From positions 8,567-72,566 of the forward strand of contig CAYRFI010000002.1 in the NCBI GenBank assembly GCA_964423595.1: a stretch of 64,000 nt of DNA, written 5' to 3'. This stretch comes from an uncultured Thermoanaerobaculia bacterium. Its GTDB lineage: Bacteria; Acidobacteriota; Thermoanaerobaculia; Thermoanaerobaculales; Sulfomarinibacteraceae. The notes below the pieces were generated by a model that was given only the letters and a program-made list of their open reading frames with translations, was not told the DNA's origin and ran no database searches. Within the stretch, counting starts at the first letter, position 1. The number at the start of each line of letters is the position of its first letter. This document shows positions 1-64,000 of this stretch, piece by piece. The position numbers and the translations under genes were made by a program.

Positions 1-1583
1 TCCCGCTCCGCACTGTGCTCTTCACCAAGCTTGCCAAGTTCGACGGCCGCAAGGTCTCCCGGCTCAAGGTGCGCGAGTTCAAACAAATCTCGGGCCGCGC
101 CGGGCGCAAGGGCTTTGACGATCAGGGCTACGTCGTGTGCCAGGCCCCCGAGGAGACGATTGAACGGTTGAAGGAACAGCGCAAGGCGGCCGCCAACCCC
201 AAGAAGCGTCCCAAGAAGGCGCCTGGCAAAGGGCGGCCCGGAGACGTCTCGTGGTCGGAGGAAACGTTCAGAAACCTCGTGACGAATCCACCGGAGAAGC
301 TGATCTCGCGCTTCCGCATCACCTCCGGGATGCTGGTCGATCTCCTACAGCGCGACGCCGCGATCAACGATCCCGAGGCCGGCAACTTCGCCTCGGTGCG
401 TCGACTGATCGCCGGTTGCCACGACGACGATGCCGGGAAACTGGGCCACCTCCAGCGCGCGGCGCAGCTCTGTCGATCACTGTACAGAGCCGGCATCATC
501 CGCATGGAGCGGGACACAGCCGGGAGCTATCTCTGGGTCACTGTCGATGAGGATCTACAGGTCGACTTCTCCCTGTTCCACAACCTCTCACTGTTCTTGA
601 TAGAGGCCATTGAAGGCCTCTATCAAGAAAACCCCGAACACGCGCTCGATCTTCTGAGCCTCGTCGAATCGGTGCTCGAAGATCCGACGATCGTCCTCCG
701 CCGCCAGGTGGACCGGCTCAAGACCGAACTCATCAATCGTCTCAAGGCCGAGGGGGTCTCCTACGAGGAGCGGATGAACCGGCTTGACGAGCTGACCCAC
801 CCGCAGCCGATCGCCGACTACATCCATGCCGCCTTCGATCACTTCCGCCGTGATCATCCATGGGTGGGCGGCGACGCCGTCCGGCCCAAATCGGTCGCGC
901 GAGAGATGGTCGAGGATTATCTGGGTTTCACGGATTACGTTCGCCGCTATGGCCTCCAGCGTTCCGAGGGCGTGCTCCTCCGCTACCTCTCCCAGGTCTA
1001 CAAGACTCTCGACCAGAATATCCCCGACCAGGCCAAAACCGAGGCGGTGCGCGACATCGTCGCCTTTCTGAGGGCGTTGCTCGAGCGGGTCGACACGTCG
1101 CTGATCGAAGAGTGGGAATCGCTGCGCCACCCCGAGCTGCTGCTCGAGGGCGCAGCCGATTCTAAAGCCGCTCATCGGGCGCTGGCGGCGCAAGAGCTCA
1201 GGAGCGATCCGGCGGCACTGGCTTCCCGGATGCGTGCCGAGCTCCACCAGCTGGTGGCCTCGCTCGCCCGCCGCGACTGGGAGGAGGCCGCTACCTGCGT
1301 TCGCCGTGCGGCGGATGAACCATCGGCCCTGGTTGAGCCTGACGATTTTTCGCACGCCTTAGAGGGTTTTTTCGCCGAACACGGGGAGCTCGTCTTCGAT
1401 CACCGTGCTCGTCTTGCCGAGCACACCCAGCTGACCCCCGAGGGCGACAACCTGTGGCGAGTCGTGCAGGTCCTGCTCGATCCGTCCGACGAAAACCTGT
1501 GGTGTATCGAAGGGCGGGTTGATCTCTCCGATGATGCGAATGTCGACGGGCCTCTCATTGTCGTGGCCCGAATAGGAACGTAA
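1..1583 (+). CDS. DEAD/DEAH-box (Ski2/HelY-like) helicase, C-terminal part; 5' end outside window
   Basis: Frame open to window edge. Helicase motif VI QISGRAGRKG at start of fragment, then a long helical C-terminal region as in DUF3516-type helicases. Stop TAA 1581-1583. Confidence 0.7.
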   Translation, partial: PLRTVLFTKLAKFDGRKVSRLKVREFKQISGRAGRKGFDDQGYVVCQAPEETIERLKEQRKAAANPKKRPKKAPGKGRPGDVSWSEETFRNLVTNPPEKLISRFRITSGMLVDLLQRDAAINDPEAGNFASVRRLIAGCHDDDAGKLGHLQRAAQLCRSLYRAGIIRMERDTAGSYLWVTVDEDLQVDFSLFHNLSLFLIEAIEGLYQENPEHALDLLSLVESVLEDPTIVLRRQVDRLKTELINRLKAEGVSYEERMNRLDELTHPQPIADYIHAAFDHFRRDHPWVGGDAVRPKSVAREMVEDYLGFTDYVRRYGLQRSEGVLLRYLSQVYKTLDQNIPDQAKTEAVRDIVAFLRALLERVDTSLIEEWESLRHPELLLEGAADSKAAHRALAAQELRSDPAALASRMRAELHQLVASLARRDWEEAATCVRRAADEPSALVEPDDFSHALEGFFAEHGELVFDHRARLAEHTQLTPEGDNLWRVVQVLLDPSDENLWCIEGRVDLSDDANVDGPLIVVARIGT

Positions 1584-1584
1584 G

Positions 1585-1689
1585 TCGAATTCGGAATTTT
1601 GAATTCTGAATTCCCAACCACCACACTCGGTGGTGGCGTCGCACAAAGTGGGTGGGAGGGCGGAATTCCGAATTGCGAATTCCGAATTG
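1585..1689. repeat. Intergenic heptad-array / G-run element, copy 1
   Basis: Left arm GAATTCG GAATTTT GAATTCT GAATTCC. Hairpin CCACCAC-N5-GTGGTGG (1618-1636). GGGTGGGAGGGCGG (1650-1663). Right arm GAATTCC GAATTGC GAATTCC GAATTGA. Confidence 0.8.
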
Positions 1690-1786
1690 ATTTCAAGTCA
1701 TATCTTGCCTAGACTTCGCATCCGCATGTAATATCCATCACATTTCTGTGATCGTTCAATTGCTACTCTGAAGATGGAAGGCACCA

Positions 1787-2257
1787 ATGAGAACTGTCTG
1801 GAGAATAGCCGCTTATGTGCTATGCGTGGTGTTGCACGCGTCGGGAACGCCGAACCCGACGGTCGCCACCACCGGTCAGACCCAGTGTCTCTCGTTCGCA
1901 GAGGCGGAGGCGCGCGGGCTGAGCATCACCACGCTGCGCGAGGAGTACACCGTCGCGGTCGAGGCCTTCCCGAATGAAAAGGCCGAGCTGGCCGAGGCAT
2001 GGAGCGAGCTGCAGTACACGTTGCGCGATCATCTTCGGGAAAGCGGAGAAAACGACCTCGGTGGGCGCTCAATGTTCAGCGTCGTGCTCTTCGAACCCGA
2101 CGGCCGCATCGCCTGGATGTTTTACCGTGGTCTGGAGCCGGACGAGGAGCCGGTCTTTTGCGAGGTCGTAGAGAAGCTGTCCGGGGAGTATCGGTTCCCG
2201 CTTCAGTCATCGACCCGCTTCAGCCAGTGCGGCACCACTCTCTTCAAAGGCGAATAA
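1787..2257 (+). CDS. Hypothetical secreted protein
   Basis: 156-aa ORF with hydrophobic N-terminal signal-like segment (WRIAAYVLCVVLHASG). No recognisable family motif. Confidence 0.5.
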   Translation: MRTVWRIAAYVLCVVLHASGTPNPTVATTGQTQCLSFAEAEARGLSITTLREEYTVAVEAFPNEKAELAEAWSELQYTLRDHLRESGENDLGGRSMFSVVLFEPDGRIAWMFYRGLEPDEEPVFCEVVEKLSGEYRFPLQSSTRFSQCGTTLFKGE

Positions 2258-2319
2258 ATCTACCGCCCACTGTCTCTTGAACGAGGGTGGACAGGAGTTC
2301 CTCTTTCCGAACGGCGTCA

Positions 2320-2838
2320 TCAGTTGCGGACGAATGTGCGGGCCTGGCGATCCTTTTTCACGCCTGGGAACTGAAGCACGCGGTTGTGCATGGCGACGTA
2401 GACGCCGCCATCGAGGAGGCGCGATGCGAGGAGGGCCTCGGTCACGTTCTGGGTCGCGTCGGTGTCGCGAAACTCGTAGGGTCGCATGGCGCCGGTGAGG
2501 ATGACGGGGATCGAGAGGTCGGTGCAGCTCTCGTACAGGTAATCGCCCGTATCGGCCAAGGTGTCGGTTCCGTGCAGGATGACGATCCCGTCCGACTTGG
2601 GGGCTGCGTCGCAGACCGCTTTCGCGATGATCTTTCGATCCTCCTCGGTCATGTCGAGAGAGTCCTTGTGCATCACCTCGACGTGACGAATGAAGAGATC
2701 CGGAATCCGCAGACCGTCGAGAATCACGTCAAGGACCGTGTGCGAGTTGCGCAGACTGCCCTGGAACTCGTCATAGGTCTTGTCGATCGTGCCGCCGGTA
2801 GTCAAGATTGTCAGTTTCATAATTTCGTCCAAAGACAT
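2320..2838 (-). CDS. Asparaginase-domain protein (short, N-terminal-domain type)
   Basis: TTGGTIDK catalytic-Thr motif near N-terminus and ILHGTDTLADTG second asparaginase motif. 172 aa. Confidence 0.75.
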   Translation of the reverse strand: MSLDEIMKLTILTTGGTIDKTYDEFQGSLRNSHTVLDVILDGLRIPDLFIRHVEVMHKDSLDMTEEDRKIIAKAVCDAAPKSDGIVILHGTDTLADTGDYLYESCTDLSIPVILTGAMRPYEFRDTDATQNVTEALLASRLLDGGVYVAMHNRVLQFPGVKKDRQARTFVRN

Positions 2839-2951
2839 ATTTCGAATTTCGGATTGCGAATTTCGGATTTTCCACCCACCCGCCCGAAAAATCTAGACCG
2901 TGGGAGGGCAGTGGTCAAATCCGAAATCCGAATTTCGAAATACGAAATCAG
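2839..2951. repeat. Intergenic heptad-array / G-run element, copy 2
   Basis: Left arm ATTTCGA ATTTCGG ATTGCGA ATTTCGG. Core CCACCCACCCGCCC (2872-2885; minus strand GGGCGGGTGGGTGG). Right arm AAATCCG AAATCCG AATTTCG AAATACG AAATCAG (2917-2951), inverted relative to the left arm and overlapping the kdsD stop. Confidence 0.8.
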
Positions 2952-3904
2952 AAAAGGCCGACGCCCCACAGGTCGTGGAGGTGCAGAACGCCCTTCAGCG
3001 GGCCATCGCCGTCGCAGACCATGAGCGAGGTGATTCTTCTTTCTTCGAGCAGCTTGAGCGCCGCAGTCGCCAGCTCGTCGGCGTTGATGCAGACACCGCC
3101 CGTGTGCATGACCTCGCTTGCGGTGTGGGCGAGCGGATCCGGGTCCCGCTCCATGAGCCGCCGCAAATCGCCGTCGGTGATGACCCCCAGCAACCGACCG
3201 GCGTCATCCTGAACAGTGGTCATGCCGAGTGCCTTGCGGCTCATCTCGTAGATCACGTCCTTCATCGCAGCGTCCGCGGTCACCCGCGGCACCTCTTCGC
3301 CGGAATGCATCAGCTCGCCGACCTTGAGGAATCGCTTCCCGAGCTTGCCGCCGGGATGGAGACGTGCGAAGTCTTCTTCCTTGAAGCCCTTCTTTACGGA
3401 CACCGCCATCGCCAGAGCATCGCCGAGGGCGAGGCTGGCTGTGGTCGAAGCGGTCGGCGCCAGGTTCATCGGACACGCCTCACGCCGCACTCCAACGTCC
3501 AGATGGAGGTCCGCGGCCTTGGCCAGCGCCGACTCCGGATTGGAGGTGATTGCGATCAGCGAAATCCCGATTCGTCGCAGTATGGCCAGCAGTTCGAGAA
3601 TCTCCTCGGTGGTTCCTGAGTTGGAGACCGCCACCACGAGATCGTTCTCGGTGACCATCCCGAGATCGCCATGGATGGCCTCTGCCGGATGCATGAAGAG
3701 TGCCGGAGTGCCGGTAGACCTCATGGTGGCAGAAATCTTGCGGCAGATGATGCCGGACTTGCCCAAACCGGTGAACACGACTCTTCCGACACAGCCCGCG
3801 ATGAGGTCCACCGCGCGATCGAACTCCTCGGGCAGATTCTCCATCAGGTTGCGGATGGCGTTGGCCTCGACCTCGAGCACCTGGAGGGCAACTTCGCGAC
3901 TCAC
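2948..3904 (-). CDS. kdsD: Arabinose-5-phosphate isomerase (KpsF/GutQ family; SIS + tandem CBS)
   Basis: VVFTGLGKSGIICRKISATMRSTGTPALFMHPAEAIHGDLGMV SIS signature, C-terminal CBS pair. 4-nt overlap with kdsA upstream. Confidence 0.85.
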   Translation of the reverse strand: MSREVALQVLEVEANAIRNLMENLPEEFDRAVDLIAGCVGRVVFTGLGKSGIICRKISATMRSTGTPALFMHPAEAIHGDLGMVTENDLVVAVSNSGTTEEILELLAILRRIGISLIAITSNPESALAKAADLHLDVGVRREACPMNLAPTASTTASLALGDALAMAVSVKKGFKEEDFARLHPGGKLGKRFLKVGELMHSGEEVPRVTADAAMKDVIYEMSRKALGMTTVQDDAGRLLGVITDGDLRRLMERDPDPLAHTASEVMHTGGVCINADELATAALKLLEERRITSLMVCDGDGPLKGVLHLHDLWGVGLF

Positions 3905-4734
3905 GGCGCCACCTCCCGGACTGCGGTAGACACCGCCTCGAGCTGTCCTATCAACCGATCGAACTCATCGAACGACAGCTGCGTAGCGGCATCGGATAGC
4001 GCTTTCGACGGGTTGGGGTGGACCTCGAGGAAGAAGCCATCGACCCCTGCCCCGGCCGCCGCCCGAGCCAGGTAGGAGTGAAATTTGCGCGAGCCACCAG
4101 TAGCGTGGCCGAGCTCACCCGGAAGCTGCAGCGAGTGGGTGACATCGAAGATCACCGGCGCAAAGCCCCGCATGGTCGGCAGCCCTCGCATGTCGACCAC
4201 TAAATTGTGATAGCCGAAGGTGGATCCCCGCTCCGTGAGCACCACGCGCTTGTTGCCGGTAGCTGCGATCTTTTCGACCGCGTTGGCCATGTCTTCGGGG
4301 GCCAAAAACTGGCCCTTTTTGACGTTGACCGGCAACCCGGTTTCGCCGCAGGCGTGGAGGAGATCGGTCTGTCGGCAGAGGAAAGCCGGCACCTGGAGGA
4401 CATCGACCACCTCGGCCGCGCGTGCCGCCTGCTCGGGATGGTGAACATCCGTGATCACCGGCAACCCTGTCGCTCGTTTGACCTCGTTCAGGGCCTCGAG
4501 TCCCACCTCTTCACCGGGCCCGCGAAAGCTCGACTCGGCGGAGCGGTTGGCTTTGTCGAAAGATGCCTTGAAGACCAGCGGCACGCCGTGGCGTCCGGCG
4601 ATCTCGCGAATCATTCCGGCCACCTCGACCACGAAATCCCGCGACTCGATAACGCACGGACCGGCGATGTAGACCGGCCGCGCACCGCCACCAATCTTCA
4701 GTCTGTCAACGAGATCGAAACCGTGACTCGCCAT
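3901..4734 (-). CDS. kdsA: 3-deoxy-8-phosphooctulonate (Kdo-8-P) synthase
   Basis: AGPCVIES, FKASFDKANRS, KKGQF, DVTHSLQLPG motifs. Start placed at ATG 4734 (MASHGFDL). The longer tracked ORF (to 5070) runs into the neighbouring gene. Confidence 0.9.
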   Translation of the reverse strand: MASHGFDLVDRLKIGGGARPVYIAGPCVIESRDFVVEVAGMIREIAGRHGVPLVFKASFDKANRSAESSFRGPGEEVGLEALNEVKRATGLPVITDVHHPEQAARAAEVVDVLQVPAFLCRQTDLLHACGETGLPVNVKKGQFLAPEDMANAVEKIAATGNKRVVLTERGSTFGYHNLVVDMRGLPTMRGFAPVIFDVTHSLQLPGELGHATGGSRKFHSYLARAAAGAGVDGFFLEVHPNPSKALSDAATQLSFDEFDRLIGQLEAVSTAVREVAP

Positions 4735-4793
4735 CGCGGGACAGTGTAGCAGCAGAGGAGCGAAGGATGACAATCGGACAAACAGGACGATTC

Positions 4794-6164
4794 TCAGCGC
4801 AATCCGAGCTTTTCGAGCTTGTCGTAAAGGGTGGAGCGCGAGATCCCGAGGATCTTCGCTGTGCGCTGGATGTTGGATTCCGTGATCTCGAGCACCCGCC
4901 GGATGTGTTCCTCCTCGATCTCGGCTAGGGATTTCGCATTCGTTTCGTCGATTGAACTTGACGAACGCAGCCCGCTCGGGAGGTGGGCCGGCATGATCCT
5001 GGTGCTTGTCCCCGCCCTGATCATCGCGGACTCGATCACGTTGCGAAGCTCGCGGGCATTCCCCGGCCATGAGTATCGGAGAAGAATCTCCTGCGCCTGC
5101 GGCGTAATGTCGGCGATCTCCCGCGTGACCAGAGGATTGAGGGCCCGCACGAAGTGCTGGGCGAGCTCGATGACGTCTTCACCCCGCTCCCGAAGCGGTG
5201 GGATATCGATCCGAAAGACCTCGAACCGATAGTACAGGTCGGCCCGAAAGCGTCCCTCGGCGACCTCGGTCGCGAGATCTCTATGCGAAGCAACGATGAA
5301 GCGCACGTCGGTCGTCAACTCGCGAACGCCTCCGACGCGCCGAAAGGTCCGGTTTTCGACGGCCTTCAGCAGCTTGCCCTGTGCCTGCGGTTGGAGTTCG
5401 GCGATTTCGTCCAAGAACACCGTTCCACCACTCGCGACCTCCAGCAAGCCCGGCTTGCGAATCGTCGCCCCGGTGAAGGCGCCCTTTTCGTGGCCAAAAA
5501 GCTCGGATTCGACCAGGGCCTCCGGCAGGCTGGCGCAGTTGACTTCGGTGAACGGCCCTGTCGCCCGCGGTGACAGGCCGTGGATACCTCGGGCAACGAT
5601 GTCCTTGCCGGTTCCCGTCTCCCCGTGCAAGACAACGGCGGATTCGGTACCCGCTACGGCGGCGACCTGCTCACGCACCCGTTTGATGACCTCGCTCGAG
5701 CCGATGAGCTCCGACAGGATTTGACCCTCTTCCGCTGCCCGCGACGCGTTGGCCTCCCTGTAGACCGACACCTTGCTGAGCGCCCGATGACGTTCGAGCG
5801 TCCGATCCACCGCCTTGGACAGAATCTCAAGCGTTACCGGTTTGGGTAGGAAATCATCAGCGCCACGCAGCATCGCTTCGACAACTGTTTGGATATCCGT
5901 CTGGCCGGTCAGCACCACCACCGATACCAGCTCGTCGCCGCCCTTCAGCCGGGGCAATAGATCGATGCCGTCCTCGTCCGGCAGCCCAAGGTCGAGCAGC
6001 ACGAGATCGATCGTACGCTCGGCGAGGAAGGCCTGCGCATCTGCGGAGGTCCTGACACTGTGCACCGTGTGGCCGTGACCCTGCAGCCAATCACAGAGGG
6101 CTGCGGAGGTGTCTGGATCGTCCTCGACGACGAGAATTCGACTTTCCGTTTGGGATGGCGCCAT
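4794..6164 (-). CDS. Sigma-54-dependent response regulator (NtrC family: REC-AAA+-Fis HTH)
   Basis: REC (ILVVEDDPD...LVLLDLGLPDEDG), Walker A GETGTGKD, sigma-54 contact loop EKGAFTGA, C-terminal HTH RTAKILGISRSTLYDKL. Start at ATG 6164. Confidence 0.9.
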   Translation of the reverse strand: MAPSQTESRILVVEDDPDTSAALCDWLQGHGHTVHSVRTSADAQAFLAERTIDLVLLDLGLPDEDGIDLLPRLKGGDELVSVVVLTGQTDIQTVVEAMLRGADDFLPKPVTLEILSKAVDRTLERHRALSKVSVYREANASRAAEEGQILSELIGSSEVIKRVREQVAAVAGTESAVVLHGETGTGKDIVARGIHGLSPRATGPFTEVNCASLPEALVESELFGHEKGAFTGATIRKPGLLEVASGGTVFLDEIAELQPQAQGKLLKAVENRTFRRVGGVRELTTDVRFIVASHRDLATEVAEGRFRADLYYRFEVFRIDIPPLRERGEDVIELAQHFVRALNPLVTREIADITPQAQEILLRYSWPGNARELRNVIESAMIRAGTSTRIMPAHLPSGLRSSSSIDETNAKSLAEIEEEHIRRVLEITESNIQRTAKILGISRSTLYDKLEKLGLR

Positions 6165-7972: not shown

Positions 7973-8004
7973 GACGGTCTGGCGCCACACGGCGCCAGAC
8001 CGTC
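7973..8004 (+). promoter_or_regulatory. Perfect 14-bp stem-loop between subunit genes (attenuator or mRNA stabiliser candidate)
   Basis: GACGGTCTGGCGCC-ACAC-GGCGCCAGACCGTC with every position paired. No T-tract downstream. Confidence 0.7.
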
Positions 8005-12262: not shown

Positions 12263-12478
12263 CCACGCGGTCGAAGGCGGCGCTGGCCGCCCTGGTCCCG
12301 GCCACCCTCCATCCCGCATATCTCCGACTTTCTGGTGCGGCCGCGGGGCCGGCGCGATACGCGGGCTGTCTCTTGTTTCCATGTCTGATATCCGGACACA
12401 CCGGCGAGCGCAGGAAATTCCCTCGCAGGTTCCCTTTTCATGCGGGTTTTCGTCCGGACGGCACCGCTGACTCACTCC

Positions 12479-12618: not shown

Positions 12619-13053
12619 ATGAAACGCTTCGTCGCCCTTTTCGCCCTGATCGCCCTCGTAACCCTGTCCGCCTGCTCGTCCGCTTCGTGGCTCTCCCGCG
12701 AGGAACAAGCCTGGAATAACTACCAGGAACGGCACGGTCTGAAACAGGGTGACGCCCTGTCGCCGGATGACTGGGATGCCCTGCTCCGCTGTGCCCGCCT
12801 GTACGCGGTCAACAAGACACCGACCATCTCCGAGATCCAGAAGACCGCGGAGTGGATCGCTCTGTATCACCACTGGGGCACCTTCCACGAGCGCCTCGAG
12901 ATGCTGGAAAAGCCGATCACAACCGCCGATCGTCTCTACCTCGCAGAACTGGCAGTGGCGATCTCATCGCGTCTCACGACCGACCCCGGCAGCGCCCATC
13001 TCGCCGATCAGCCGGTGCGCAGTGCAGCCATGACTGAACTCATCTCCGACTGA
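12619..13053 (+). CDS. Lipoprotein, unknown function (last gene of sigma-54 cluster)
   Basis: Lipobox LVTLSAC after a hydrophobic signal. 144 aa. Confidence 0.65.
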   Translation: MKRFVALFALIALVTLSACSSASWLSREEQAWNNYQERHGLKQGDALSPDDWDALLRCARLYAVNKTPTISEIQKTAEWIALYHHWGTFHERLEMLEKPITTADRLYLAELAVAISSRLTTDPGSAHLADQPVRSAAMTELISD

Positions 13054-30628: not shown

Positions 30629-30732
30629 CCCGCATATCTCACCGGGTTTCGTCGCAAGGGCAGCCAGATGAGAAAACAACGCTGGGTGCGATACATCGCC
30701 GGTCGCAGCAGGAAGCTGGTGAGATATGTGGG
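30629..30732. mobile_element. 104-bp MITE-like element carrying the IS terminus as inverted repeats
   Basis: CCCGCATATCTCAC (30629-30642) ... GTGAGATATGTGGG (30719-30732). Begins directly after the kinase stop TAA. Confidence 0.7.
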
Positions 30733-30901
30733 CTGAATCACTCCGATTCGAGTTATGATGACTCGGGACCCGGGGACCGCGCCCACGGGGCCTGGGAACC
30801 GAAACAAGCGGGCGATCGTAGTGAACAGCAGGCCAGGTTCGCCGCGACCACGAGCGTCGATGCCGTCATCTGGCGGCCCCGACGCGAGTTCGGGAGGCTA
30901 G

Positions 30902-37190: not shown

Positions 37191-38327
37191 CTACAGGTCT
37201 TCTTCAGTAACCTCGAATCGTACGCCACGAGCGGCCAGGTAATCGAAGATGAAGTCGTAGCACGCCTCATTCCGACCGACGAGCTCAGGCGGCGACAATC
37301 CGGGTTCGGAGTAAAGCCCTTTTGCGATGACATTGACCATCGCGGTGCACGTGTATCCGGTAGTTCGCGCCATGGAGGTGATCCCGGCCTCCCTGTCATA
37401 ACGATCGAGCATATCGTAGCGCCGGCGCACCTCTCGACCCTGGAGGACCCCCTCCACCTCCGCCCGCAGCACGGTCAGATCCATTTCTCCCTCGCCCAGC
37501 TGCCAGGCGGGGATCAGGAGCTTCTCGGCGACATCAATAGGCCGAACCATCGCGCCACCCACCTCGATCGGTTTCTCGCTGAAATAGCCGATGTCAGCCA
37601 GCATTTTCATTCGTTCGGCGTGACCCGGATATCGCAGGGTCTTTTCCGTCATCTCCGGCACCTTTGACGTCTTGAGCAGGGTCCTCAGTCCGTCCGTGTT
37701 GAATGCCTCGAGAGTTCCGACCTCATCGAAATCGAGGTGCTCGATCTCGGTCAGCGCTGGCTTCGTGACCACCTTTCCGCCTTTCACCAGCCGCGCCGGG
37801 CGGGTGTACTCGGCGATGACGTCGATCGGCGAGAACACCGCCTTGTATTCGTAGGGCCAGTGTCGGGCTACCGGTAATCCGCCGACATAGCAGCGGATAG
37901 CGTCCACTCGCCCCCACGACGCCTCGGCCCTCCCGAAAATCAAACTCGAAGAGCCTGGCGCCACCCCGCAATCCATCACCGCGGTCACGCCGCGATCCAT
38001 GGCAAGCTGGTGAAGCGGCCACGGCTCCTCCTCGAAGAAGGAGATATCGACCACGTTGACGCCGGCTTCGATGATCCGGCCGAGCGTCGCAAAACCCATC
38101 GGGCCAGGCACCGCCCCGACCGCCAGGTCGTATCCCCCCACCAACCTCCTGATCTCACCCGGTGCCGCGAGGTCCGCCCGTTCGGTCGTCAAGCCAGCAA
38201 CCGTTGCGAGGCGATCGAGCGCCGTTTGTGACACATCAGCCACCTTGAGATCGAACTGCCCATTGGCAGCCAGGTCTCTGGCAATCGCCTCACCCACTCT
38301 GCCCGCGCCGAGCACGACGACCCGCAT
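37191..38327 (-). CDS. Saccharopine-dehydrogenase-family oxidoreductase
   Basis: N-terminal Rossmann MRVVVLGAGRVGEAIA, C-terminal Sacchrp_dh-like region. RBS GGAGG before ATG 38327. Confidence 0.7.
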   Translation of the reverse strand: MRVVVLGAGRVGEAIARDLAANGQFDLKVADVSQTALDRLATVAGLTTERADLAAPGEIRRLVGGYDLAVGAVPGPMGFATLGRIIEAGVNVVDISFFEEEPWPLHQLAMDRGVTAVMDCGVAPGSSSLIFGRAEASWGRVDAIRCYVGGLPVARHWPYEYKAVFSPIDVIAEYTRPARLVKGGKVVTKPALTEIEHLDFDEVGTLEAFNTDGLRTLLKTSKVPEMTEKTLRYPGHAERMKMLADIGYFSEKPIEVGGAMVRPIDVAEKLLIPAWQLGEGEMDLTVLRAEVEGVLQGREVRRRYDMLDRYDREAGITSMARTTGYTCTAMVNVIAKGLYSEPGLSPPELVGRNEACYDFIFDYLAARGVRFEVTEEDL

Positions 38328-38350: not shown

Positions 38351-38395
38351 CACCACCCACCCGACCAACCGGATGCAAGATACAAGATGCAAGAT
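38351..38395. repeat. G-run core plus GCAAGAT-type heptad array
   Basis: CACCACCCACCCGACC (minus strand GGTCGGGTGGGTGG), then GCAAGAT ACAAGAT GCAAGAT (38375-38395). Confidence 0.65.
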
Positions 38396-47120: not shown

Positions 47121-47207
47121 CGCCCCTCCGGGGCTTGTTGAATTGAATGCCCTCGTTTCCTGGGGCTCACGCCCCAGGCTGATCAACTGTCGCCCCTCCG
47201 GGGCTCA
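47121..47207. repeat. REP-like GC-hairpin element
   Basis: CGCCCCTCCGGGGCT (47121-47135) and GGGGCTCACGCCCCAGGCTGATCAACTGTCGCCCCTCCGGGGCTC (47162-47205). Closely similar to 63513-63559. Confidence 0.7.
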
Positions 47208-50150: not shown

Positions 50151-50621
50151 ATGACCATCGAACTCGATTTTTCCAAGCTCAGCGGCACCGATGTGCTCGA
50201 CATGGCGATCGCCATCGAGGACGAGGCGCAGATGTATTACGAGCAGCTCGCAGGCTGGGTCGGCGACGAAAATCCTGAGGTTGTGGACTTCTTCAGCCGC
50301 ATGGCGGTGCGCGAGAGGCGCCATCACGACCAGGTCGTCGTGCTGCGCAAGCGGTTGTACGGCGATGCTCCGACCTCGAACGCGGCCAAGGTCTCATGGT
50401 CGGTCGAGGAGCCCGACGTCTACAAGGTGCCGGAAGATGTCACGCTGCAGCAGGCCTTCGAGGTCGCGATGGAATCCGAGACCCGCGCCTACGACTTCTA
50501 CGACGGCGCCATCGGGTACGCGGCCGATGACCAGATCGCCGAGCTCTTCGAGGGCCTGCGCCAGGCCGAGGCCGACCACCAGCGGATGCTCCGCGAGGAA
50601 ATGGCGAAGTACCCGGGATAG
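50151..50621 (+). CDS. Ferritin-like/rubrerythrin-family protein
   Basis: Two ExxH-type helices (AIEDEAQMYYEQL...RERRH; MESETRAYDFY...QAEADH). Confidence 0.65.
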   Translation: MTIELDFSKLSGTDVLDMAIAIEDEAQMYYEQLAGWVGDENPEVVDFFSRMAVRERRHHDQVVVLRKRLYGDAPTSNAAKVSWSVEEPDVYKVPEDVTLQQAFEVAMESETRAYDFYDGAIGYAADDQIAELFEGLRQAEADHQRMLREEMAKYPG

Positions 50622-50656
50622 CCCCAAGCACGGAATTCACCCACCCGCGCTTGAAT

Positions 50657-50777
50657 GAGGAGTTAGGAATTAGGAGTTAGGAATTCCCACCCTCCCCACT
50701 CGCGGTCTGAAATCCCGTGCGGGTGGGTGGGTGGTAAATCCGAAATCCGAAATTCGAATTCCGAAATTCGAAATCTC
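50657..50777. repeat. Intergenic heptad-array / G-run element, copy 3
   Basis: Left arm GAGGAGT TAGGAAT TAGGAGT TAGGAAT. Core CCCACCCTCCCCAC...GGGTGGGTGGGTGG (50721-50734). Right arm AAATCCG AAATCCG AAATTCG AATTCCG AAATTCG AAATCTC. Confidence 0.8.
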
Positions 50778-51123
50778 AACACGTCAAATGCAACGCCGCA
50801 GCGACATCTCTGCCCTCGTCTGCGAAGCGGTTGAACGCTCCGACCGCGGCGCCCGTGCGCTCGACCACGATCTCCGACCCGGCTTCGGCAAGAGCCGTCA
50901 GCGTCTCATCGAGGACCTTGACCCGTCCGAAGTAGCCGGTGCCGAGAACCACCACCTCGGGCGCCGCCGCCAGCACCTCGTTGAAGTCTTCCACGGCGTA
51001 GACGTGCCCACCCGCCTCACGCCACCAAGGACCTTTGACCTCGTCACCGAGCAGAATCACGTCCCGCGAGTAGTCCCTGCCATCGATTTGAATACTGCCG
51101 AAAGAGTAGCTGTCGATGTGCAT
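50776..51123 (-). CDS. Mth938-like (DUF498) domain protein
   Basis: FGSIQIDGRDYSRDVILL...VVVLGTGYFG pattern. Confidence 0.6.
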   Translation of the reverse strand: MHIDSYSFGSIQIDGRDYSRDVILLGDEVKGPWWREAGGHVYAVEDFNEVLAAAPEVVVLGTGYFGRVKVLDETLTALAEAGSEIVVERTGAAVGAFNRFADEGRDVAAALHLTC

Positions 51124-58230: not shown

Positions 58231-58259
58231 AGAAAAAGGCCCGTGTGAGGAGCACGGGC
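58231..58259 (-). terminator. Rho-independent terminator of the 58369-58926 gene
   Basis: Minus strand reads GCCCGTG-CTCCTCA-CACGGGC followed by CTTTTTCT. Confidence 0.65.
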
Positions 58260-59148: not shown

Positions 59149-59257
59149 GGAGTTTTGAGTATTGAGTTATTGGCCCCCCGACAATAATCCCCGGGCGGAG
59201 AGGAGTCTGGTCGGGAAATCAAAAATTCGAAATTCGGAATTCGAAATCAGAAAATGA
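59149..59257. repeat. Intergenic heptad-array element, copy 4
   Basis: Left GGAGTTT TGAGTAT TGAGTTA. GC core. Right AAATCAA AAATTCG AAATTCG GAATTCG AAATCAG AAAATGA. Confidence 0.7.
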
Positions 59258-59315
59258 GACGTGGTCGCCGAGTCGGAGATTCCATGCGAGTGTTCTACAC
59301 TGTTGAATCGTGACT

Positions 59316-61139
59316 ATGGAACGCTTCGGGAAATACATCCTCGTCGACAAGATCTCCTCGGGGGGCATGGCCGACGTCTATCGGGCCAAGGTCCTCGGGA
59401 TCCGAGGTTTCACCAAGACGGTGGCCATCAAACGCATCCACCCCCACCTGCTCGAGCGAACGCGGTTTTTACGAATGTTCACCGACGAGGCGAAGATCGC
59501 CTCCCGCCTGGTCCATCCCAACATCGTCCAGATCTACGACCTCGGCGAGGCCGGAGGAACGCCCTACATCGCAATGGAGTACGTTGCCGGGCGCGACCTC
59601 TTTCGGGTCCTGCAGCGGCTCGGATCGCTCGACCGGAGGTGTCCGTGGCGGCTGGCGACGAGGATCGTCAATGAGGTCTGCACCGGCCTGCATTTCGCGC
59701 ACGACTTCCGTTCTCCCGACGGACAACCACAGGAGATCGTCCACCGCGACGTCAGCCCTCGCAACATCATCATCACCTACAACGGCGAGGTGAAGCTGAC
59801 CGACTTCGGCGTCGCACGGGCGCGCGACCGTGAGGAGCACACCGAGCACGGGATCATCAAGGGCAAAGTCCGCTACCTGAGCCCGGAGGCGGCTTACGCC
59901 AAGCATGTCGATCGCCGCTCGGATCTCTTCTCGCTCGGCATCGTCTTCGGCGAGATGCTGTTAATGGCTCCTCTGCGCACCGGCGACAACGAGATGGCCA
60001 TGCTGCTCGACATTCGCAAGGGTGAGTTCGACCGCAAACGGTTCAACGCCATTCCAAAATCACTGCGGTCGGTCCTTAACCGCGCCCTCGAGGTCGAGAG
60101 GGACGATCGCTATCCCACCGCACTCGAGTTTGCTGAGGACCTCGAGGGCAAGTGCGACGAAAACTCGAAACCGATGAGCGAGGCCGAGGTCGCGACCTTC
60201 ATGCACTCGCTCTTCGCCGAGGACATCGAACGCGAAAAGGTGCGGGACGAAGAGGTCGAGCGAGAGCTCAGAGAGACCTCCGACCAAGACGAGGAATTGC
60301 CACGACCGGTCGCCGCCGCTACTCCGAAGGCTCCTGCCGGAAGCCTCAAGAACCCGCTCAATATTTTCGCCGCCCGTGGCGCCGGACCGGTGGCGGTACC
60401 GGCACTCGATGCCATGGACCGACGGCCGCCGAAGGCAACCCGGGAAGGCCTGTTGCACGAAACCTCCTTGTGCCGCGTTCTCCACCAGATCGCGGACGGA
60501 ACGGTCACCGGCGTTCTCGACCTTCACCGCGAACCAGTCAAGAAGTCGATTGATTTCGAAAATGGGAACCCCGTCTTCGCCGACTCCAACGTCGAGAGCG
60601 AGCTCTTCGGCGAGCACCTCGTGGCGCAGGGCATTCTCTCCCGAGAGCAACACGGCGAGACCCTCGATTTTGCCGCCCGGAAAGGGCTTCGTTTTACCGA
60701 AGCGCTGCTCGCCCTCAACGCGTGCACGCCGAATGTTCTCTTCCAGCAGCTCGGCGGCCAGGTTCGGAACCGCATCCTCGATCTCTTCAGCTGGATCACC
60801 GGATCGTTCTTCCTGTACGTCGACGCGCCCATCACCCAGAGCGGTCTCCCGTTGAATCTGCGCACCCACACTCTGATCCACGAAGGTGTACAGGAACGGT
60901 TGCCGCTGGTCGTGATTCGACGTTTCATGGAGGGCCGGATGGGGCAGACCGTGCTTCGGGTCCCAGGCTCGATCCCCGCCGACCTCCAGCTGTCCGGCCG
61001 CCAGCAGCGGATCCTCCGCACCATCGAGGCCGAGGAGACCACGGTCGAAGAGCTGGTCCGGCTCGAGAAGGACGAGGAGTGGCTGCTGCGGCTGCTCTTC
61101 ATGCTGCACGAGATCCAAAGGGTCGTTTTCCGGGATTGA
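59316..61139 (+). CDS. Ser/Thr protein kinase with C-terminal DUF4388-like domain
   Basis: GGMADVYRA...AIKRI, HRDVSPRNII, LTDFGVA, YLSPE. C-terminal GVLDLHREPVKKSIDFENGNPVFADSN. Start is ATG 59316 or GTG 59310. Confidence 0.85.
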   Translation: MERFGKYILVDKISSGGMADVYRAKVLGIRGFTKTVAIKRIHPHLLERTRFLRMFTDEAKIASRLVHPNIVQIYDLGEAGGTPYIAMEYVAGRDLFRVLQRLGSLDRRCPWRLATRIVNEVCTGLHFAHDFRSPDGQPQEIVHRDVSPRNIIITYNGEVKLTDFGVARARDREEHTEHGIIKGKVRYLSPEAAYAKHVDRRSDLFSLGIVFGEMLLMAPLRTGDNEMAMLLDIRKGEFDRKRFNAIPKSLRSVLNRALEVERDDRYPTALEFAEDLEGKCDENSKPMSEAEVATFMHSLFAEDIEREKVRDEEVERELRETSDQDEELPRPVAAATPKAPAGSLKNPLNIFAARGAGPVAVPALDAMDRRPPKATREGLLHETSLCRVLHQIADGTVTGVLDLHREPVKKSIDFENGNPVFADSNVESELFGEHLVAQGILSREQHGETLDFAARKGLRFTEALLALNACTPNVLFQQLGGQVRNRILDLFSWITGSFFLYVDAPITQSGLPLNLRTHTLIHEGVQERLPLVVIRRFMEGRMGQTVLRVPGSIPADLQLSGRQQRILRTIEAEETTVEELVRLEKDEEWLLRLLFMLHEIQRVVFRD

Positions 61140-61281
61140 TTGGTCGTCTCGACCTTTTTTGATCCGCAGAGAACGGGATAAACTCGCACACCTCAGCCCA
61201 CTCGTCTTTCTCTGCGGTTCAAAAAAGGTGAATGGCATATATTTGACGGCGGCAGAACCATCGTGAGGTGAGGGAACTGGT

Positions 61282-63417
61282 TTGGCGCAAGGCAGGAAAC
61301 CTGTCGTCTGGTTGGCCACGGCGATCATCCTGTGGCTTGTCGCCGGGGCAGTCGACCGCCGGACCGAGGTCGAGATCTTCTCCAGCGGTGGCCAGCTCCA
61401 CCTCCAGGTCGCCGGTACGACCGTGTCGGCGCCGATCGCCATCGAGCTCCTGACCGCGGTCGAAATCCGCGCGATGGACTCCATCGATCCTCCCGGGGGC
61501 GGCCGGATCACCATCACGAGCGACCGCGGTGAGGTCGCCAGCGAGCGCCTCCCACGCCGTTTTCGCTTGCCAACCGGTGCGGTCACGCCGGTCGGCGATT
61601 GGCAGCTCGATGATTTCGCCGGCCGGGGACAGGTGTGGAGGCGCCCACTGGTAGTGAGCGGACCGTTCACCGTCAACGCGACCTTCCGGGGGCGCTTCCA
61701 CTACGATCTCGAGGTCGTGTTGCGCGGCGTGCCGACGGCCTCCGTTGCCATTCGGCGGGGGCTGATGAACCACGACGCCTTCATCCGTTCGGCCGACGGC
61801 ACGACGCTTGCCGTCACCAGCATCGACCCGACCCCCGCGGCCGACCTGGGGGCGACCGCCGCCACGCTTCTGCGGGCGGCGGCTCTCGCCTCTCTCCTGA
61901 TCGCTTTTTTCGCCCTCTTCGAATTCATATGCCGTCCGTCACCGAAGGCCGCCGCCGCGCGACGATGGAAGGCAACGCCGTGGGCCGCAGCGCTTGCAGT
62001 AGCCGCGGTCGTCCTTTCGCTCTGGGTGGCGCGAGACGTGCTCGAGGGCCTGCCCCACGTGCCGGATTCCGTCACCTACCTCCTGCAGGCGCGGTGGCTT
62101 CTCGCCGGAGATCTCTGGGGAACGGTTTCGGCCTTCCAGGATCACCTCGACGTGCCTTACACCTACGTCGTCGGCGCGCGATGGCTGGGACACTATCCGC
62201 CCGGCTGGCCGCTCCTCCTGTCGATCGGCCTCGCCGTCGGCGCGCCCTGGCTGGTTGCCCCGATCCTCGGTGGACTCTTCGTGATGCTCCTCTACCTTGC
62301 GGGCCGCGAGCTCGACGGACCGGTCACCGGTCTCCTCGCCGCAATTCTCGGTGTGCTGTCACCGATGGTTCGGCTGATCTTCGGCAGTCTCTTGTCCCAC
62401 GCGGCGGCCGCCACGCTGATCCTCGCCGGGCTGTGGCTGTTTTTGGCGGCACGACGGCTCAAGACCTTGCCGCCGGCCGCCCTCTCCGGGATGGCCTTCG
62501 GCCTCGCCTTCGGTATCCGGCCGCTGTCGGCGGTGGCCTCGGCGATTCCGCTCGCCGCCGTGTTCGTCGGCGACCTGATGGCCCATCGTGACCGCGATTC
62601 GCGCTACCGCGTCGCCGGTTGGTTTCTCGGCGGGACCGTCGCAGTACTGCCGACCCTCGCCGCCAATCACCTCATCACCGGCAGCGCCCTGACCTTCCCG
62701 TACTCACTGGCGCGAGGATCCATGTACCTCGCCGCCAACATCCCGTTCGGAATCCGCAACATCGACGTGCTCTCCTACTCCGCCGGCAGCATGCTCCACG
62801 GCTGGGGCTGGCCGCAGTTCCACGGTCCGTTCTGGGTCGCGCTTGCGTTCGCCTTCGCCCTGGTGCCGTTTCTGCTGCGACGACACACCTCCAACGATGT
62901 GCTGCTGGCGGCGATTGTCGGATCGGTGATGGTGGCCTTGCTCGGCAGCCGCGGCCACGGACTGCACGGTTTCGGTCCGCGCTATCTCTTCGAGGTCTTC
63001 GCTCCTCTCTTGCTGCTCACCGCACGAGGCTTTGTTGAGCTTGCACGACAGAGGTTTGAAGGGCGCGAGGTGGAGCGCCGCGTCCACATCGCCGCTTCCG
63101 CGTTGCTCTTCATCATCCTCTGCGGCACCGCGGCAATGGCCCTCCCCCAGCGGCTCGGCCTCTACCGCGGCTACAACGGTGTCGATAGCTCCCTTGAACA
63201 CGAGGTCGCCGCGGCGGGGCTCGAACGGGCGATGGTTCTCCTGCCGCCCGATGATTGGCGCGGTTGGGCGATGGCGGCGCGGTTATTTGATCCCGATCCC
63301 GAGGCGGACCTCTTGTTCATCCAGGCGGAGCCGGATGACCCGGCGATTCCTGAGATCGCCGGCAATCGACCGATTTACGCCTGGCGGGACGGGCGGTTGG
63401 AGCTTCTCACGCCGTGA
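61282..63417 (+). CDS. Polytopic membrane protein, GT-C (ArnT/PMT_2-like) glycosyltransferase candidate
   Basis: N-terminal TM plus a soluble segment of about 170 aa, then about 10 TM helices with a loop PHVPDSVTYLLQARW. TTG start. Confidence 0.45.
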   Translation: MAQGRKPVVWLATAIILWLVAGAVDRRTEVEIFSSGGQLHLQVAGTTVSAPIAIELLTAVEIRAMDSIDPPGGGRITITSDRGEVASERLPRRFRLPTGAVTPVGDWQLDDFAGRGQVWRRPLVVSGPFTVNATFRGRFHYDLEVVLRGVPTASVAIRRGLMNHDAFIRSADGTTLAVTSIDPTPAADLGATAATLLRAAALASLLIAFFALFEFICRPSPKAAAARRWKATPWAAALAVAAVVLSLWVARDVLEGLPHVPDSVTYLLQARWLLAGDLWGTVSAFQDHLDVPYTYVVGARWLGHYPPGWPLLLSIGLAVGAPWLVAPILGGLFVMLLYLAGRELDGPVTGLLAAILGVLSPMVRLIFGSLLSHAAAATLILAGLWLFLAARRLKTLPPAALSGMAFGLAFGIRPLSAVASAIPLAAVFVGDLMAHRDRDSRYRVAGWFLGGTVAVLPTLAANHLITGSALTFPYSLARGSMYLAANIPFGIRNIDVLSYSAGSMLHGWGWPQFHGPFWVALAFAFALVPFLLRRHTSNDVLLAAIVGSVMVALLGSRGHGLHGFGPRYLFEVFAPLLLLTARGFVELARQRFEGREVERRVHIAASALLFIILCGTAAMALPQRLGLYRGYNGVDSSLEHEVAAAGLERAMVLLPPDDWRGWAMAARLFDPDPEADLLFIQAEPDDPAIPEIAGNRPIYAWRDGRLELLTP

Positions 63418-63420
63418 GAA

Positions 63421-63520
63421 GCAAGATCCGGGGTTCGCGACGGGGCCCGTTCGAGATGAAACGCAAGATCCGGGGCTCACGAGAGGGCCGTTCGAGATGT
63501 AACGCAAGATCCGGGGCTCA
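63421..63520. repeat. 2.4 copies of a 41-42-bp tandem repeat
   Basis: Units start at 63421, 63463 and 63504: GCAAGATCCGGGG(T/C)TC(G/A)CGA..GGGCCGTTCGAGATG(A/T)AAC. Confidence 0.8.
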
Positions 63521-63608
63521 CGCCCCGGGCTATCCATCTGTCGCCCCCTTCGGGGGCTCGTGAGCTCATTGATTCCGCCGTCCCCGGAGGCTCACGCCCC
63601 AGGTTGAG
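63513..63608. repeat. REP-like GC-hairpin element (same family as 47162-47205)
   Basis: GGGGCTCACGCCCCGGGCTATCCATCTGTCGCCCCCTTCGGGGGCTCG and CCCCGGAGGCTCACGCCCCAGGTTGAG. Inverted GCAAGAT-type heptads (ATCTTGC ATCTTGG ATCCTGC) follow at 63665-63685. Confidence 0.7.
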
Positions 63609-63705
63609 TCGTATCAAAAAAAGCCGCGGAGCGGCGGCAGGTTGATTTCGCTCACCGAGCGCGGATCTTGCATCTTGGATCCTGCAACAACATCATAATG
63701 AAACC

Positions 63706-64000
63706 ATGAACGGCGCTTCAAAATCCTGGCGGGCAAGCTATGTGCGGCTGGCACGGAGCGGGGAGCTTGACAAACGGGTCGAGCAACTCGATGCGCTGCT
63801 CGAAGACTGCTCGGTTTGCCCGCGGAGGTGCGGTGTTGACCGGCGGAGTGAGCTCGGAGAGTGCGCGACTGGCGCCGATGCGGTCATCGCCTCCTGGAAC
63901 CCCCACCACGGCGAGGAGCCTGTGATCTCCTGCCGCCGCGGCTCGGGCACCGTCTTCCTCGCCAACTGCAACCTGCGCTGCGCCTTCTGCCAGAACCACG
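63706..64000 (+). CDS. Radical SAM protein, 5' part (3' end outside window)
   Basis: ATG 63706. CNLRCAFCQN (CxxxCxxC) at the window edge. Upstream Cys cluster CSVCPRRC...C. Confidence 0.75.
   Translation, partial: MNGASKSWRASYVRLARSGELDKRVEQLDALLEDCSVCPRRCGVDRRSELGECATGADAVIASWNPHHGEEPVISCRRGSGTVFLANCNLRCAFCQNH

Follow-up and report, generated by a model that had tools for sequence, protein, structure and literature searches.

Tandem heptanucleotide arrays of Thermoanaerobaculia form the arms of intergenic hairpins whose repeat units change between orthologous sites

We analysed a window of 64,000 nucleotides (contig CAYRFI010000002.1, positions 8,567 to 72,566) from an uncultured bacterium of the Thermoanaerobaculia (phylum Acidobacteriota), in which tandem heptanucleotide arrays flank GC-rich cores between genes. 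An initial annotation had drawn attention to these arrays, but it overlooked what matters most: it is the hairpin that is conserved, while the sequence of the repeat unit, and once even its period, changes at orthologous sites. Our favoured explanation is that the elements are structurally selected, probably co-transcribed hairpins resembling the REP sequences, placed close to stop codons in 3′ or intercistronic positions, with arms built and homogenised by slippage. We hold it tentatively, because we infer both the level of action, RNA, and the molecular effect.

Persistence of the hairpin and turnover of its units

At the junction of a SIS-CBS gene and an asparaginase-like gene, we found a long hairpin 0–3 nt past the stop codon in 17 of the 17 loci that have both genes, at protein identities of 71–92%. 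Its arms consist of ATTTCGR, GAATTCG, GAATTAG, TGAGGAA, GAGTTCG or AATTATG heptads, and also of TTTTGAA-type heptads; in one locus (L021) they are made of a hexamer repeat, TCCGAG, folding at −59.7 kcal/mol, and in another (L040) the site is occupied by a 228-nt palindrome that is not repetitive. When eleven full elements from this junction were aligned and folded with RNAalifold, 35 pairs were obtained, 16 of which were changed on both sides. The fraction of paired cells was 91.3%, compared with 77.0% in shuffled alignments, and the covariation score was 0.367 compared with 0.145 (none of the 500 shuffles matched either value); slid controls of the same alignment were 21–60% paired. The double changes recur at the same heptad positions, and therefore reflect a handful of whole-arm switches rather than 48 independent events.

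A second orthologous site, downstream of a DUF3516 gene, also varied in its units. Most Sulfomarinibacteraceae genomes carry an array there, 5–8 nt past the stop codon, built from GAATTCG, GAATTAG/GAATGAG, ATTTCGG or, in twelve copies, GAGTTCG, and the right arm either co-varies with the left or is absent.

Arrays were also seen to change in length and to arise in place. At the element lying downstream of a rubrerythrin/ferritin-like gene in the window (element 3 in the list below), contigs of two samples (runs X2 and X4) are identical to the window over 301 nt save for exactly one heptad (7 nt) missing at 50736; copy number at elements 1 and 2 was invariant across four samples. Where the rubrerythrin-like gene ends, one TAACGTC overlaps the stop codon in some genomes, and four to five copies of AACGTTNN occupy the same place in others. 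An array was thus born here in situ from native sequence.

Sites within about 1.5 kb of each other in one genome tend toward a common unit (GAGTTCG in L025; GAATTAG in L024, L029 and L043; ATTTCGG in L026 and L032), whereas arrays 5–10 kb away differ, and on this pattern we rejected a genome-wide trans-acting reader of one unit. In L032, two inverted copies (12283–12397 and 12920–13035) flank the asparaginase-like gene, with cores identical at 44 of 45 positions; the pair could be a substrate for inversion or the result of recent duplication or conversion. The local sharing of units, together with these near-identical cores, points to slippage plus local conversion or duplication. A conserved core with a variable spacer inside the units, which would be the signature of a protein site, was likewise rejected: mismatches within the arrays are few and spread out, and their hot spots merely turn one unit family into another.

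Anatomy, abundance and position of the elements

Across the lineage, the canonical element consists of an AT-rich arm of 31–33 nt (about 4.5 heptads), a GC-rich core of 45–52 nt and an inverted arm, giving a total length of 110–118 nt. Array length is sharply peaked at 30–35 nt (72 of the 156 rows reported by Tandem Repeats Finder, TRF; 4.4–4.7 units), and the gap between arms peaks at 45–52 nt. Among 39 array pairs lying at most 120 nt apart, most are mutually inverted, with 0–1 mismatch between their unit consensuses, and each array is about 96% identical to its own unit. The GC content is 32% in the arms and 65% in the cores, in a genome of about 62%. The core opens with a C-run of the CCCACCC type and closes with a G-run of the GGGTGGG type. 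This C-first, G-second polarity was found in 25 of 33 elements, the reverse in none and a mixed arrangement in 8, with fewer independent cases than these counts, since many of the copies are orthologous. As both polarities would be strand-symmetric, this is no trivial bias. The arm length of about 32 nt, the 7–8 nt period and the polarity of the core are the most interesting leads.

A few arrays extend far beyond the 32-nt mode, to 12–18 units (L025 11573–11654, 17960–18085 and 20414–20528; L038 570–680), and the length rule is therefore a strong mode rather than an absolute cap. Arrays of period 8, made of the palindrome AACGTT plus two variable bases and usually of 4–5 units, occur as well (L009 3470–3514, L014 3473–3509, L004 3468–3498, L016 2663–2694, and several in L024 and L043). 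They often start inside the stop codon (TAA-CGTT), and a single array of this kind is able to pair with itself.

The proteins flanking the elements are closest, at no more than 85% identity, to metagenome-assembled genomes (MAGs) of Candidatus Sulfomarinibacteraceae (Thermoanaerobaculia, Acidobacteriota), and the window itself was found again at full identity in salt-marsh metagenomes. Thermoanaerobaculia loci totalling 539 kb were set against 893 kb from other phyla, all retrieved with the same queries. Period-7 arrays numbered 25.1 per 100 kb in the former and 1.1 in the latter in our own scan, and 29.0 against 4.0 by TRF; in the Thermoanaerobaculia loci, period 8 was mildly raised and the remaining periods were not. 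Contigs from many other loci raise the coverage of element 3's right arm in the source metagenomes to a depth of about 800–850, against about 7. The arrays thus form an abundant repeat family in this lineage, and the proviso of the initial annotation that the five listed sites might be the only ones does not hold, given both this depth and the density in relatives. Units related to GAATTCG account for 68 of the 135 arrays in Thermoanaerobaculia, with 43 canonical unit types in all, and the loops differ between copies.

The arrays are intergenic in 129 of 145 cases (89%), though about 81% of the DNA is coding; the earlier description of intergenic arms around a GC-rich core agrees with this placement and with the base composition given above. 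Gene positions were taken from a crude caller based on GC3, whose stops are reliable and whose starts are approximate. Divergent gene pairs hold only 7 of the 94 elements with two called neighbours, compared with 69 of the 275 gaps of 60 nt or more that served as background, whereas convergent contexts are enriched (14 of 36 pairs, against 65 of the 275 gaps). A stop codon lies within 10 nt of the outer boundary of the element, or overlaps it, in 50 of the 94 cases, and in a wider set the stop of a long open reading frame (ORF) falls within 40 nt in 53 of 76 hairpin pairs.

The window also has long inverted repeats or hairpins without tandem units 1–18 nt past stop codons, at 30629–30740, 61140–61225 and 7973–8004 (z −3.4, −3.6 and −5.6), examples being a pair of 17-nt arms that enclose a loop of about 65 nt, and CCTTTTTTGATCCGCAGAGAA, which pairs with its complement. 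Hairpins close to stop codons are therefore a broader habit of this genome.

Run over the whole window, TRF returned every site of the initial annotation as a period-7 array, with the exception of 63421–63520, and an autocorrelation scan found 7 period-7 stretches in the window, compared with a mean of 0.07 and a maximum of 1 in 30 block shuffles. Both tests bear out the tandem heptanucleotide arrays that had been claimed. The arrays are as follows.

Element 1, 1587–1689, plus strand (TRF): left arm GAATTCN ×3.9 (1587–1613), right arm (C)GAATTS ×3.7 (1663–1689); core 1614–1662, CCAACCACCAC...GTGGGTGGGAGGGC
Element 2, 2839–2954, minus strand (TRF): arms ATTTCGR ×4.6 (2839–2870) and AAATCCG-type ×5.4 (2917–2954); core CCACCCACCCGCCC...GGGAGGGCAGTGG
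Element 3, 50653–50775 (TRF): left arm TAGGART ×4.7 (50653–50685), right arm AAATYCG ×5.7 (50736–50775); core 50686–50735, CCCACCCTCCCCAC...GCGGGTGGGTGGGTGG
Element 4, 59150–59257, plus strand: TGAGTWW ×3.1 (59150–59172, weak), GC-rich core, AAATTCG-type right arm (59223–59247 by TRF)
Single array, 38353–38395 (TRF): GCAAGAT/ACAAGAT ×3.4 (38372–38395), with CCACCCACCC before it (38353–38362)
Weak single array, 63665–63686 (TRF, 80% matches, score 30): ATCTTGC ×3.1, the inverse of GCAAGAT

The paired arrays are mutually inverted and fold as long hairpins, element 4 more weakly than elements 1–3. Element 1 begins 3 nt past the stop codon (1581–1583) of the DUF3516 helicase-family gene (15–1583; Pfam) and folds at −50.7 kcal/mol (z −5.5). 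Element 2 takes up the space from the SIS-CBS gene (2948–3904) to the asparaginase-like gene, both on the minus strand, and the stop codon of the former (2948–2950) falls within its last unit. Its arms had been called mutually inverted and able to form a hairpin, and they indeed fold at −44 kcal/mol on the plus strand and −49 kcal/mol on the minus (sense) strand, with z about −5 (sense −5.0). Element 3 sits between the convergent rubrerythrin/ferritin-like gene (50151–50621) and a DUF498 gene on the minus strand (50776–51123; Pfam), the stop codon of which (50776–50778) directly adjoins the right arm; it folds at −54.0 kcal/mol on the plus strand (z −4.5). In the relative L016, a DUF498 homologue 3′ of the rubrerythrin-like gene (2749–2895) looks internally shortened to about 50 codons; it retains N- and C-terminal residues and has heptad arrays on both sides.

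The arrays had been said to end precisely at stop or start codons. This stands for the three stops at 1581–1583, 2948–2950 and 50776–50778, but not for the start at 2838: the true start of the asparaginase-like gene is probably the ATG at 2820, 18 nt from the array, because orthologues align only from residue 7.

Element 4 is an atypical, weaker copy in a divergent region about 60 nt upstream of a Ser/Thr kinase gene (59310–61139; Pfam). It folds at −38.1 kcal/mol on the plus strand (z −2.1; −0.9 on the minus strand), and its AAATTCG-type units come to the reported six only with degenerate ones included. No partner arm accompanies the array at 38372, which lies in the divergent region upstream of a saccharopine-dehydrogenase-like gene on the minus strand, whose start is likely the ATG at 38327; no significant fold was obtained on either strand (z −1.3 and +0.4). 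Its unit family, GGATGCA/GCARGAT, is also present in relatives. The GCAAGAT type had been reported to recur at two further places. The inverted copy at 63665, just upstream of a gene starting at 63706, is confirmed, though it is weak. The other place, 63421–63522, is a 41-nt tandem repeat (2.5 copies, 90% matches) beginning 4 nt past the stop codon of the gene 61282–63417; each of its units has one GCAAGAT and a small GC hairpin, and it is a different type of repeat from the heptad arrays.

An Rfam scan of the window at gathering scores placed no family on the elements, its only hit being an Acido-Lenti-1 RNA at 47159–47205 (47.3 bits, gathering score 37), and a scan of 1400–3100 by E-value gave matches at chance level only (MIR7504, E 0.083; CRISPR-DR15, E 0.62). 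A motif very similar to Acido-Lenti-1, GGGGCTCACGCCCCGGG...ATCTGTCGCCCC...GGGGCT, which the gathering scan missed, is present at about 63506–63556 of the window and in the relative L008 (4040–4090).

Possible level of action and competing explanations

According to the explanation that we favour, the elements would act mainly on the transcript, as do the REP/BIME sequences of E. coli, the Correia elements of Neisseria and the RNase III hairpins of phage T7. A co-transcribed hairpin would have at least one of three effects: blocking 3′-exonucleases, offering a double-stranded site to RNase III, or, as its base is within the footprint of the terminating ribosome, tuning upstream termination and the access to the next ribosome-binding site. 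The heptads would be building material and not the signal. Replication slippage would add and remove units, and slippage, local gene conversion or template switching would homogenise them and copy changes from one arm to the other; the unit sequence would therefore drift fast while the hairpin persists. On this view the lineage is an unusually clean case, in which the structure that is selected can be told apart from the repeat that is generated. Should the elements affect mRNA stability, processing or translational coupling, they would add a widespread level of operon control in phyla that have been little studied; they would also be relevant to gene calling and to the assembly of genomes from metagenomes.

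In E. coli, REP sequences are co-transcribed and stabilise the upstream mRNA. The Correia/NEMIS elements of Neisseria and the hairpins of T7 early mRNA lie within polycistronic transcripts, where RNase III cleaves them, and they change how stable the flanking cistrons are. These hairpins are conserved in sequence and lack repeat-built arms, unlike the elements described here, and the likeness would lie in the mechanism that we propose.

In favour of our explanation are the abundance of the arrays, their intergenic placement, scarcity between divergent genes and closeness to stop codons, the fixed architecture, the persistence of the hairpin with covarying arms, its toleration within essential operons (ribosomal protein genes of a Chloroflexia locus, described below), the one-heptad polymorphism, the in-situ birth and purity of arrays, and the non-repeat inverted repeats past other stop codons. 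The folding strand agrees with action on the transcript as well: where both neighbours point the same way, the strand that is sense for the upstream gene gives the better fold in 15 of 20 cases. Our case is not built on this preference. Several observations weigh against our explanation. Stem mismatches comprise 32 sense G·U and 22 A·C, a weak signature for selection at the RNA level, and at L016 2922–3009 a good fold is obtained only for the strand that is antisense to both neighbouring genes. In the sole metatranscriptome with this organism, no contigs lie over elements 1, 2 and 4; part of the rubrerythrin-like gene is covered, and what matches element 3 is confined to array fragments of other loci. 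Divergent or 5′ regions are the setting of element 4 and of the single arrays at 38372 and 63665. Many of the counted loci are orthologous, so that independent sites are far fewer than elements. The compensatory changes between arms could arise mutationally, by template switching in quasi-palindromes, without selection. Finally, the explanation does not account for the 7–8 nt period and the arms of about 32 nt seen in many phyla.

The main rival, which we consider somewhat unlikely, is that the elements are a neutral or selfish by-product: heptads generated by slippage, period 7 being favoured by the replisome and its loops too large for MutS, would become palindromic through template switching and survive, without any function, only where they are harmless, 3′ of genes. 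The one-heptad polymorphism at element 3, the in-situ birth of arrays from native sequence, their purity of about 96% and the weak G·U asymmetry all fit this proposal, as does the sharing of units within about 1.5 kb and not at 5–10 kb, which suggests local conversion and no trans-acting reader. Bacteria normally delete useless DNA, however. A by-product would also not be expected to peak sharply at 30–35 nt, when arrays of periods 6 and 9 decay from the detection floor, to keep a constant core size and a core polarity of 25 to 0, or to leave a hairpin in 17 of 17 loci even where the repeat type or period has changed. Slippage as the origin of such repeats has been hypothesised in the literature (Mrazek 2007, as cited in PMC4679880 and PMC4692102). 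A mobile family of the MITE or REPIN type, with the arms as terminal inverted repeats and a transposase or RAYT as the copying enzyme, is distinctly unlikely. It would agree with the MITE-like inverted terminal arms and uniform size of about 110–118 nt, with the invariant C-first, G-second polarity, which a single founder would explain, with the two nearly identical inverted copies in L032, with an arm plus GGGTGGG junction common to many metagenome contigs, and with a Chloroflexia strain that lacks exactly the 97-nt hairpin at one ribosomal-protein junction. A transposase, however, would need conserved ends, and the 135 arrays are of 43 canonical unit types; loops differ even between copies with common arms, native sequence gives rise to arrays in place, and no target-site duplication accompanies the one clean indel. 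No transposase was noticed beside any element, although no search was aimed at transposases. By inspection, the window elements have no consistent flanking direct repeats, and we rejected arrays derived from target-site duplications, or such duplications themselves, as the arms are inverted and not direct and the clean indel lacks junction homology.

A protein site at the DNA level, for gyrase (as in BIME-2), for a nucleoid protein on the AT-rich arms or for a ribbon-helix-helix protein polymerising on heptads, seems quite improbable. BIME-2 has a strong gyrase site, and omega of pSM19035 polymerises on heptads. The two-fold symmetry of the elements, their overall length of about 115 bp, near the gyrase footprint, their location downstream of genes and between convergent genes, the AT-rich arms in a GC-rich genome, the arms of about 32 bp (about three helical turns) at both the 7- and the 8-nt period, and the nearly equal folding of both strands would all be in keeping with such a site. 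On the other hand, the units are too diverse for one sequence-specific protein, a period of 7 bp is out of step with helical phasing, and the GC-rich centre disfavours cruciform extrusion. Motifs for CsrA (GGA), Sm-like proteins and RNase E, as well as a sequence-specific heptad-binding protein, were dropped by inspection, many units having no such motif. It is very improbable that the elements are intrinsic (factor-independent) terminators, bidirectional between convergent genes. They are stable hairpins at 3′ ends and are enriched in convergent contexts, but no T-run follows the elements of the window, a consensus terminator scan did not rise above shuffle level and placed real-looking terminators elsewhere, and elements occur between the cistrons of operons, one of them an operon for ribosomal proteins; in relatives, the element is often succeeded by a small GC hairpin of its own. 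One of the terminators found elsewhere, at 63623–63638, is a bidirectional textbook example (GCCGCGGAGCGGCGGC, preceded by an A-run and followed by T-runs on either strand), and the genome therefore uses canonical terminators at some gene ends; another lies at 58259–58239 on the minus strand. Least probable of all is the formation of a G-quadruplex (G4) or i-motif, as proposed for the heptamers of Xanthomonas and Nostoc. Core runs such as GGGTGGGTGGGTGG opposite CCCACCC could be taken to suggest it, and 14 of 33 cores have four runs of at least two G. Only 1 of the 33 has four G3 runs, however, and within the hairpin the G-run is paired with its C-run. The arms, at 32% GC and without G3 runs, are not G4-forming heptads and yet have the same four-to-five-unit mode, which weakens the G4 explanation of the mode in Xanthomonas.

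Known heptamer repeats and arm length in other phyla

The elements are the local form of the widespread heptamer repeats of bacteria, a kind already known, in a lineage-specific variant. Our literature search returned no description of such repeats in Acidobacteriota. The initial annotation had knowledge of no equivalent in GC-rich genomes, which does not hold, as GC-rich Xanthomonas carries GGGAATC arrays, comparable to the GGGGAYT arrays of Nostoc, with a mode of four units and 70–75 inverted pairs per genome (Rehm et al. 2015, PMC4692102). The Xanthomonas arrays lie about 28 nt after the upstream ORF and are depleted between divergent genes, and G4 formation, for which four units with a G3-4 tract each would suffice, has been proposed for both genera and, in Xanthomonas, credited with the four-unit mode (PMC4692102). 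Our elements have in common with these heptamers that about 90% are intergenic, that the mode is about four units and inverted pairs are frequent, that they lie near the end of the upstream ORF and are rare between divergent genes, and that the same gene pairs carry them in related species with variable length and sequence. They differ in their AT-rich units, which are unable to form G4, in the GC-rich core of 45–52 nt with its fixed C-then-G polarity, in the many unit types per genome, and in the phylum.

The comparison with STRR, three heptanucleotide units of the heterocystous cyanobacteria Calothrix and Nostoc as summarised in PMC4692102, had already been made in the initial annotation, and it holds for the dispersed, intergenic occurrence of tandem heptanucleotide arrays. 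The window has other units (GAATTCN, AAATYCG, TAGGART and GCAAGAT). The STRR units are CCCCAGT, TTGGTCA and CAACAGT; TTGGTCA appeared only in an unrelated Blastocatellia MAG (L155), and we know of no description of STRR with a tripartite hairpin architecture or abutment on stop codons. REP, BIME and REPIN sequences of enterobacteria and pseudomonads (REPIN: PMC3116915) resemble the elements as abundant extragenic palindromes of about 100 nt with two inverted halves, at 3′ ends or between cistrons and many of them near stops; REP is conserved within a genome and tied to RAYT, a Y1 transposase, however, whereas the arms here are tandem repeats of many different units. The TAACTGA repeats of marine Beggiatoaceae are direct, rarely inverted and located just upstream of start codons (PMC4679880), unlike our elements, which are mostly inverted pairs just past stop codons. 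Geobacter metallireducens has GGGACCG and MTYCTGA sets, the former being a 49-copy 'four heptanucleotide repeat' family (PMC2700814). Both the Beggiatoaceae and the Geobacter sets are lineage-specific intergenic arrays of 2–6 units, proposed to be post-transcriptional or global regulatory sites (PMC4679880, PMC2700814). Heptamers have been reported as the commonest intergenic periodic repeat across prokaryotes (PMC6344855; likewise Mrazek 2007, as cited in PMC4679880), and for their function there is 'no clear clue' (PMC6344855).

We scanned 185,579 species genomes for exact (AAWTYCG)x3 and found many phyla among the matches listed. At the loci among these matches, arrays of other units also peak at 30–35 nt (91 of 223), and adjacent arrays are inverted in 48 of 104 cases and direct in 11. 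Arrays of period 8 have a mode of 30–32 nt at 3.9–4.0 copies, while periods 6 and 9 show a simple decay from the detection floor. The conserved quantity thus looks like arm length rather than copy number, because periods 7 and 8 share the mode of about 32 nt while their copies differ. Arms of about 31–33 nt, about three helical turns, were seen in Acidobacteriota, Chloroflexota, Verrucomicrobiota, Planctomycetota, Omnitrophota, the Candidate Phyla Radiation and others. We think it unlikely, though worth stating, that repeat-armed hairpins make up one cross-phylum class under a rule of length, and not of sequence or copy number. If true, such a rule would mean that some shared, undiscovered machine or process measures length in writing or selecting the arms; a dedicated copying mechanism, or a protein that binds RNA or DNA over about 32 nt, would be a candidate. 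The rule would also give a handle on why 7 is the favoured intergenic period in prokaryotes. Together with the C-then-G polarity of the core and the abutment on stop codons, the length rule is a concrete, testable regularity.

Within 7 kb of one Chloroflexia locus (L160) there are eleven heptad hairpins, which occupy the stop-to-Shine-Dalgarno gaps separating the ribosomal protein genes L22, S3, L29, S17, L14, L24, L5, S8, L6 and L18, and metatranscriptome contigs span from coding sequence into a hairpin, for example at 4698–4862. A related strain, seen in an RNA-derived contig, lacks exactly 97 nt (684–780), comprising one hairpin and its stop codon: at the 683/781 junction its L22 ends ...GAATAG directly before the ATG of S3. 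No target-site duplication and no shared letters were found at this junction. In L160 the 97-nt hairpin, with its own TAG, stands in for the last L22 codons; the stop codon of an upstream gene can therefore come from a hairpin of this kind.

Six GGGACCG/GGTCCCC heptamer arrays are present in 21 kb of a Vicinamibacterales locus (L042), their unit being that of the Geobacter metallireducens family. In the Blastocatellia MAG L155, TTGGTCA ×7.3 (1132–1182), which we take to be the cyanobacterial STRR2 unit, lies next to AATGACA ×5.9 (1228–1268).

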